A stretch of 64,000 nt of DNA from Escherichia coli. GTDB taxonomy: Bacteria > Pseudomonadota > Gammaproteobacteria > Enterobacterales > Enterobacteriaceae. The notes beneath the pieces are model-generated. The model was given only the letters and a program-made list of their open reading frames with translations, did not search any database and was not told the DNA's origin. The stretch is taken from the NCBI RefSeq assembly GCF_003334405.1, contig NZ_QOWM01000005.1. One strand, given 5' to 3'. How positions within the stretch are numbered: position 1 is the stretch's first letter; every line of letters starts with the position of its first letter. A program made the position numbers and the translations under genes. Below are positions 34,208 to 34,303 of this stretch, in pieces.

Positions 34208-34303
34208 AGATGTTGTTCTGCCAATGTTATGCCGCTGCACCCTCAACTTACGTTATCCCAACTTGTGACTGTTATTCGGCGCTCCACGGAGCGCCTTTTT
34301 TTC
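34208..34303 (+). ncRNA. malH: malG 3'UTR; candidate 3'UTR-derived small RNA (MalH recalled from literature)
   Basis: ~96 nt between malG stop and the intrinsic terminator; assignment as sRNA is from memory of the literature, not from sequence alone. Confidence 0.35.
34278..34303 (+). terminator. intrinsic terminator of malEFG operon
   Basis: hairpin ggcgctcc-acg-gagcgcc followed by ttttttt. Confidence 0.85.

Follow-up and report, generated by a model that had tools for sequence, protein, structure and literature searches.

The malG 3' end of an Escherichia coli maltose locus matches the annotated small RNA MalH

The window analyzed here is a 64,000-nucleotide (nt) stretch of Escherichia coli DNA (contig NZ_QOWM01000005.1), and the element in question is MalH, a small regulatory RNA (sRNA) encoded at the 3' end of malG, a maltose transporter gene. 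The malG coding sequence occupies positions 33317-34207 on the + strand in both the open reading frame (ORF) list and the RefSeq annotation, and its product scores 609.9 bits with the NCBIfam MalG equivalog model NF008231, whose cutoff is 261. The gene comes last in malEFG, the parent mRNA of MalH, and its TAA stop codon in the ORF list (34205-34207, + strand) lies inside the sRNA. Downstream of this stop codon, a terminator scan identified the hairpin GGCGCTC-CACG-GAGCGCC at 34278-34295 (+), with 7 pairs, 6 of them G-C, and a 4-nt loop, followed by TTTTTTT at 34296-34302. A first-pass annotation of this DNA had placed a strong intrinsic terminator with a U7 tract after malG, which the scan bears out, although the stem comprises 7 bp around a CACG loop rather than the 8+3+7 arrangement (ggcgctcc-acg-gagcgcc) that it had drawn. 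It had also counted about 96 nt between the stop codon and the terminator; the untranslated tail is there, but that figure includes the terminator itself, with 70 nt separating the stop codon from the hairpin and 95 nt separating it from the last T.

Window positions 32833-36333 correspond to positions 4240500-4244000 of E. coli K-12 MG1655 with 0 mismatches over 3501 nt. Within this interval, RefSeq record NC_000913.3 annotates, between xylE and malG on the complementary strand (4242531..4242633), the ncRNA malH (b4807, "small regulatory RNA MalH"). The annotated gene maps to 34200-34302 (+) in the window with 103 of 103 nt identical, shares 8 nt with the end of malG (stop codon included), and runs on the sense strand to the intrinsic terminator of the operon, such that the 3' end in RefSeq falls on 34302, the last residue of the U7 tail. 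Because both coordinates and sequence match exactly, the identity with MalH is secure, and confusion of the MalH annotation or paper with another locus is effectively excluded. The first-pass annotation had mentioned a reported malG-derived sRNA called MalH, and this name was correct, b4807 being identical over its 103 nt; the span it assigned, 34208-34303, was less exact, in that MalH starts about 8 nt inside malG and position 34303 (C) lies past the U-tract. The window shows no difference from MalH of E. coli K-12 (b4807; PMC8081044) in sequence, position 3' of malG, terminator, or seed. When positions 34100-34420 were compared by megablast with complete E. coli genomes, matches were obtained in 5423 of 5426, at 95-100% identity.

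Taken together, we are highly confident that 34200-34302 (+) encodes MalH, an sRNA already known to associate with Hfq that probably lacks a promoter of its own, is probably cut from the malEFG mRNA, and pairs with ompC and ompA. The feature is already published, reviewed, and annotated in RefSeq, and re-finding it adds no new biology; its literature comprises Iosub et al. in RNA Biol 2020/2021 (PMC8081044) and eLife 2020 (PMC7213987) and a review from 2022 (PMC9438474). In Rfam 15, no family recognized MalH even at a permissive threshold (window 33800-34700, E<=10). A match to TarB (RF02538) was rejected at 18.7 bits against a gathering threshold of 80 (E = 0.85), as it rests on the terminator hairpin and U-tract only, and a sub-threshold, terminator-driven suhB/mmgR match was taken as chance.

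The first-pass annotation had proposed that this region is a candidate source of a 3' untranslated region (UTR)-derived, Hfq-binding sRNA, to be checked by Northern blotting, 5'-end mapping, and Hfq interaction data. The RefSeq entry agrees with this proposal, and all three types of experiment have been published with positive results (PMC8081044, PMC7213987). Northern blotting confirmed the small RNA, which was named MalH and showed a transient peak of expression at an optical density at 600 nm (OD600) of about 1.8 (Iosub et al. 2020 eLife, PMC7213987), the peak being placed at OD600 1.8-2.4, in the transition to stationary phase, in the other study (PMC8081044). MalH was also seen in chimeras from Hfq CLASH (crosslinking, ligation, and sequencing of hybrids) and from RNA interaction by ligation and sequencing (RIL-seq) (PMC8081044, PMC7213987). 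By primer extension, MalH is 104 nt long with its 5' end inside the malG coding sequence, and it comprises part of that coding sequence, its stop codon, and the terminator (PMC8081044). Calling the RNA a 3' UTR product is thus apt for most of its length but not for all of it, since the end of the malG coding sequence is included. If the 3' end is 34302, the published length puts the 5' end at 34199, one position ahead of the RefSeq start. The authors proposed that RNase E frees MalH during the known decay of the malEFG mRNA and that Hfq stabilizes its 3' end (PMC8081044), and a 2022 review of 3'-end-derived sRNAs classed MalH as RNase E-type (PMC9438474).

The terminator is common to the malEFG mRNA and MalH, and with its flanks the hairpin folds at -14.7 kcal/mol. 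In the 103-nt RNA as a whole, two weak hairpins, one 5' and one central, accompany the terminator, leaving MalH nt 30-52 unpaired in the centroid fold. The target-pairing seed, consisting of UUAUGCCGCUGC and ACCCUCA at 34227-34245 (+; MalH nt 28-46), is supported by the local duplex calculation, by conservation, and by being unpaired in the centroid fold. Hfq-binding modules consist of a U-rich stretch adjoining a GC-rich terminator hairpin together with a long U tail (six residues or more). MalH has the corresponding elements: UGUUAUU at 34270-34276, which directly precedes the stem on its 5' side, a 7-bp GC-rich hairpin, and the U7 tail. The first of these is the U-rich end of a second conserved block, CCCAACUUGUGACUGUUAUU at 34257-34276 (+), which is conserved in most alignment rows and by analogy is a candidate internal Hfq contact.

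Published regulation centers on porin mRNAs. Pulse over-expression of MalH decreased about 20 transcripts, including ompC, ompA, ptsH, rseA, and the sRNAs MicA and RyeA (PMC8081044). Wild-type MalH repressed green fluorescent protein (GFP) fusions to ompC and ompA, whereas a seed mutant did not; a compensatory ompC mutant showed partial rescue, and ompC mRNA in polysome fractions decreased by about 37% (PMC8081044). In a chromosomal double seed mutant grown in maltose, MicA was about 30% higher and lamB about 20% lower (PMC8081044).

We assessed target pairing by comparing the MalH body with MG1655 ompC, ompA, and micA in a windowed local duplex search against 100 dinucleotide shuffles. This search was used in place of full-length RNAduplex, which returned meaningless end-to-end duplexes of MalH and its targets that were no better than shuffles. 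The ompC optimum joined MalH 34218-34246 to positions -67..-30 of the ompC leader at -32.9 kcal/mol, compared to -20.5 +/- 2.4 for the shuffles, none of which (0/100) was as good. The predicted duplex falls into two blocks: UUAUGCCGCUGC (34227-34238) would pair with GCAGUGGCAUAA (-49..-38), and ACCCUCA (34239-34245) with UGAGGGU (-66..-60). This main predicted ompC site (-66..-38) lies upstream of the ribosome-binding site. The same MalH region gave the ompA optimum, against positions -130..-94 at the extreme 5' end of the leader (-33.2 kcal/mol, with 0/100 shuffles as good).

The MalH core was further compared with eight targets, and pairing with the translation-initiation regions of lamB, malE, malF, malG, malK, xylE, and psiE did not beat the shuffles in any case. 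The eighth target, chosen for malM but lacking an ATG at the assumed start, is part of the lamB-malM intergenic region (minus strand, about 27300-27340). Its duplex reached -23.5 kcal/mol, a value matched by 2 of 60 shuffles before correction for the eight targets; this pairing is probably chance.

Conservation was assessed at the 3' ends of malG genes. A scan of species-representative genomes with a degenerate pattern built on the C-terminal ending of MalG (GLTAGGVKG plus stop codon) returned at least 120 matches, many of them unrelated MalG-family permeases. True malG orthologues among these were picked by tblastn with the MalG sequence of the window. This C-terminal ending is common to MalG-family sugar ABC permeases of Proteobacteria, Firmicutes, Actinobacteria, Chloroflexi, and others, and the pattern is not malG-specific. 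The resulting sample, at least 10 Enterobacteriaceae among the matches listed, is small and lacks Salmonella and Klebsiella; it consists of E. coli, E. albertii, two Citrobacter, Superficieibacter, Mangrovibacter, and four Enterobacter-labelled species. As the MAFFT alignment misplaces some terminator arms, stems were judged by folding each sequence separately.

All 10 sequences shared one architecture, namely a variable segment after the stop codon, the seed block, the second block, and a hairpin with U6-7. The stop-to-seed segment measures between about 24 and about 58 nt and could not be aligned, while the seed block reads (A)UGCCACUGCA-ACCCUCAAC across genera, with ACCCUCA and MalH C36/G38 invariant in 10/10 and (G)CCACTGCA nearly invariant in E. 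albertii, Citrobacter, Superficieibacter, Mangrovibacter, and Enterobacter. Most genera carry GCCACUGCA, in which the A faces a U in the ompC site of E. coli, GCAGUGGC, to form an A-U pair, and E. coli and E. albertii carry GCCGCUGCA, which gives a G-U wobble at that ompC position. The second conserved block, downstream of the seed, is CCCAACUUGUGACUGUU. Judged from these sequences, the strongest conservation falls on the target-pairing block and not on the stop-adjacent sequence, which is the pattern expected of a trans-acting seed, and the 5' end and length of MalH probably differ between genera. In Klebsiella pneumoniae, a MalH orthologue was called by RIL-seq between malG and psiE; its sequence is partly similar, and its binding site overlaps the reported one (PMC11347178).

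The 7-bp hairpin with T6-7 occurs at the same place in 10/10 Enterobacteriaceae malG 3' ends. Its stem positions 5 and 6 are C-G/U-A in Escherichia, Citrobacter, and the E. cloacae group. Mangrovibacter and the remaining Enterobacter have G-C/C-G there, amounting to two compensatory changes. A simple consensus terminator scan is non-discriminating here (2 sites compared to 1.8 expected in shuffles); the terminator is beyond chance because it is conserved across the ten Enterobacteriaceae, which is better evidence than the scan count. The malG 3' ends of Photorhabdus, Aeromonas, and Vibrio contained neither the ACCCUCA block nor the conserved MalH terminator.

Extra GC-rich hairpins follow the malG stop codon, within the first about 50 nt, in Mangrovibacter (CCCGCGCG…CGCGCGGG) and in Citrobacter (CCTGCCCGG-TAA-CGGGCA), with loci L089, L035, and L118 covering both genera. 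In the metagenome-assembled genome CTSoil_132 (L123, about 11900), an enterobacterial-like MalG that is 93% identical is followed by 150 nt with neither the ACCCUCA block nor an obvious terminator, and the region 3' of this malG looks like a repeat or insertion.

These data are consistent with a mechanism in which the MalT/CRP-dependent malEFG transcript would end at the intrinsic terminator at 34278-34302, and its endonucleolytic decay, putatively by RNase E, would leave a stable 5'-monophosphate fragment of the final ~104 nt, which Hfq presumably protects at the terminator and U-tail. The single-stranded UUAUGCCGCUGCACCCUCA (34227-34245) would then pair with the ompC and ompA 5' UTRs, and this pairing would lower the levels of both mRNAs and, for ompC, polysome loading as well. 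MicA is a repressor of lamB. MalH over-expression lowers MicA, directly or indirectly, and a route from MalH through MicA to lamB is inferred; on maltose, the transporter operon would thereby favor maltoporin over the general porins.

Several points weigh against this account. The stability of the whole-RNA fold is ordinary (z = -0.93), and unremarkable whole-RNA stability is normal for this sRNA class. MalH also has no Rfam family. The best MalH-MicA duplex reached -13.7 kcal/mol, with 85/100 shuffles as good, and the sequence lends no support to a direct MalH-MicA interaction; likewise, MalH-lamB pairing was no better than shuffles. Cleavage by RNase E is a proposal for the mapped 5' end; the published 5' ends are heterogeneous, and candidate RNase E sites lie 4 nt (E. 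coli, terminator exonuclease [TEX] data) and 10 nt (Salmonella, transiently inactivating an endoribonuclease followed by RNA sequencing [TIER-seq]) downstream of the primer-extension end (PMC8081044). Finally, the chromosomal seed mutant shows modest changes of 20-30%, with ompC unchanged, and the authors caution that the seed mutations also impaired processing (PMC8081044), so that part of the seed-mutant effect may stem from altered malG decay.

An alternative explanation is that MalH is only a terminator-protected intermediate of malEFG decay, which binds Hfq and appears in chimeras but has no meaningful native regulatory activity, the main role of the region being termination and stabilization of the 3' end of the operon mRNA. 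The clear target effects come mainly from arabinose-driven over-expression, and the chromosomal mutant, in which malG levels were perturbed along with processing, shifted MicA and lamB by only 20-30% and left ompC unchanged (PMC8081044); the review, for its part, regards the exact mechanism, notably that of LamB derepression, as yet unresolved (PMC9438474). Against this stands the 19-nt two-block complementarity to ompC, with a similar one to ompA, that beats all 100 shuffles. In addition, conservation within this length-variable UTR is highest in the pairing block, which argues for selection beyond the terminator, the reporter data are seed-dependent and include a compensatory mutant (PMC8081044), and RIL-seq targets in Klebsiella independently yielded the binding site (PMC11347178). 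We therefore consider it unlikely that MalH is a decay intermediate alone.

A second alternative, in which a separate promoter in the malG 3' end would give MalH as a primary transcript, like MicX or the DapZ/MicL-type 3' sRNAs, is very unlikely. A consensus scan found no sigma-70-like promoter on the + strand from 33300 to the MalH 5' end, upstream of 34200, though such scans miss weak and non-sigma-70 promoters and cannot exclude one; the sole sigma-70-like site in the region, at 34333-34360, is downstream of the terminator. As far as it goes, this outcome fits a processed RNA. Experimentally, MalH was degraded by a 5'-monophosphate-dependent exonuclease, as was the processed sRNA CpxQ, unlike the primary transcript RybB (PMC8081044). 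MalH also tracks malG and its MalT/CRP control, both RNAs being about 35-fold higher in maltose than in glucose, and longer malG-3' UTR intermediates were visible on Northern blots (PMC8081044). The notion that the region encodes a small protein deserves almost no credence: the 36-codon frame MLFCQCYAAAPSTYVIPTCDCYSALHGAPFFLSSAI with its stop, open at 34210-34320 (+), does start 3 nt after the malG stop codon with an ATG at 34210 preceded by AAGG at 34200-34203, but this ORF was rejected because it extends across the terminator to a point 18 nt past the U-tract, which would leave the terminated transcript without a stop codon, and because it is not conserved outside Escherichia, the ATG and post-stop segment being replaced in all other genera with length changes that are not multiples of 3.

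Read as a processed, trans-acting RNA, MalH resembles the type II 3' UTR sRNAs that bind Hfq, namely CpxQ, SroC, NarS, SdhX, and OppZ. These are cut, as MalH probably is, from the 3' end of an mRNA; like MalH, they share the intrinsic terminator of that mRNA, carry a 5'-monophosphate, have expression slaved to the promoter of the parent operon, and place the seed in a conserved single-stranded block upstream of the terminator. MalH differs from them in that its 5' end is heterogeneous and inside the coding sequence and its expression is unusually transient. Furthermore, its targets are abundant porin mRNAs already under many sRNAs (MicC, RybB, MicA), and the benefit to its parent pathway (lamB) may be indirect. 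MicC and RybB, which served as positive controls in the MalH study (PMC8081044), are like MalH in being Hfq-dependent and in pairing with the ompC 5' UTR, but each is a separate gene with its own promoter and has no sequence relationship to MalH.

The Vibrio sRNA MicX (RF01808) occupies the same slot as MalH, directly 3' of malG on the same strand. The MicX model matched in five Vibrio at 99-178 bits (gathering 75), starting 0-15 nt after malG (L025 12293-12484; L090 1172-1364, minus strand; L053 7202-7402; L072 7947-8131; L018 8405-8582, minus strand), whereas no MicX match was obtained in window positions 33800-34700 even at E<=10. MicX differs from MalH in having its own promoter and a length of about 190 nt, and the two have no known shared targets (PMC9438474). 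The review remarked that MalH and MicX share genomic position but not sequence ancestry or biogenesis (PMC9438474), and our searches confirm this remark because the Vibrio malG 3' ends match MicX and the E. coli window does not. Other gathering-level Rfam matches in the compared loci were the malK-II RNA motif near Vibrio mal genes (L090 5693-5742, L025 7925-7974, and L053 2857-2906) and STnc430 in the E. cloacae locus (L067 6827-6987).

The genes around MalH are those of the maltose region, and NCBIfam equivalog models confirmed MalG, LamB, MalK, MalM, XylE, and PsiE in the window. malE (30414-31604) precedes malF and malG in the malEFG operon; malK, lamB (27522-28862, minus strand), and malM are divergent and lie upstream of malEFG. 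Downstream of malG are xylE (34579-36054) and, on the opposite strand, psiE (36098-36508).

xylE is a presence/absence polymorphism in E. coli. The K-12 arrangement was found in 3617 of the 5423 genomes, and in the other roughly 1800 the similarity ends at window position 34302, the last T of the MalH terminator, with psiE directly next; most other genera sampled also have the xylE-less arrangement. The xylE segment extends from 34302/34303, so that its left boundary is the last U of MalH, to about 36094 (the equivalent in the xylE-less locus L002 is 2197-2210). Both K-12 junctions end in a T-run (…GAGCGCC-T7 before xylE and GCTGAC-T5 before ACTCCCGC), and the exact breakpoint is therefore ambiguous; no mobile-element features were seen at these junctions. 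In E. coli without xylE, the final two T of the MalH U-tract are also part of the minus-strand psiE stop codon (TAA), with L002 2179-2204 corresponding to window 34278-34302, and the downstream sequences suggest the same overlap in E. albertii, Citrobacter FP75, Superficieibacter, and several Enterobacter.

At the xylE-less junction, where GAAUAACAG follows the hairpin, the terminator scan found no terminator-like site for the psiE strand, and psiE read-through would consequently be antisense to MalH. Such read-through under phosphate starvation could in principle give an RNA antisense to the MalH/malG end, coupling phosphate status to MalH and porin choice, a coupling that K-12 would have lost. 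This idea is speculation from gene arrangement alone, and we regard it as decidedly improbable. The neighborhood itself, with a xylE polymorphism bounded at the last U of MalH and the overlap with psiE, is the only observation here that is loosely new.

The value of this locus for the present analysis is that of a positive control, in which a genuine 3' UTR-derived sRNA was picked out and named from sequence alone. For the biology of E. coli, MalH is a textbook-style case of an operon mRNA that carries a trans-acting regulator in its tail, whereby the transcript for the maltose transporter also tunes porin composition.
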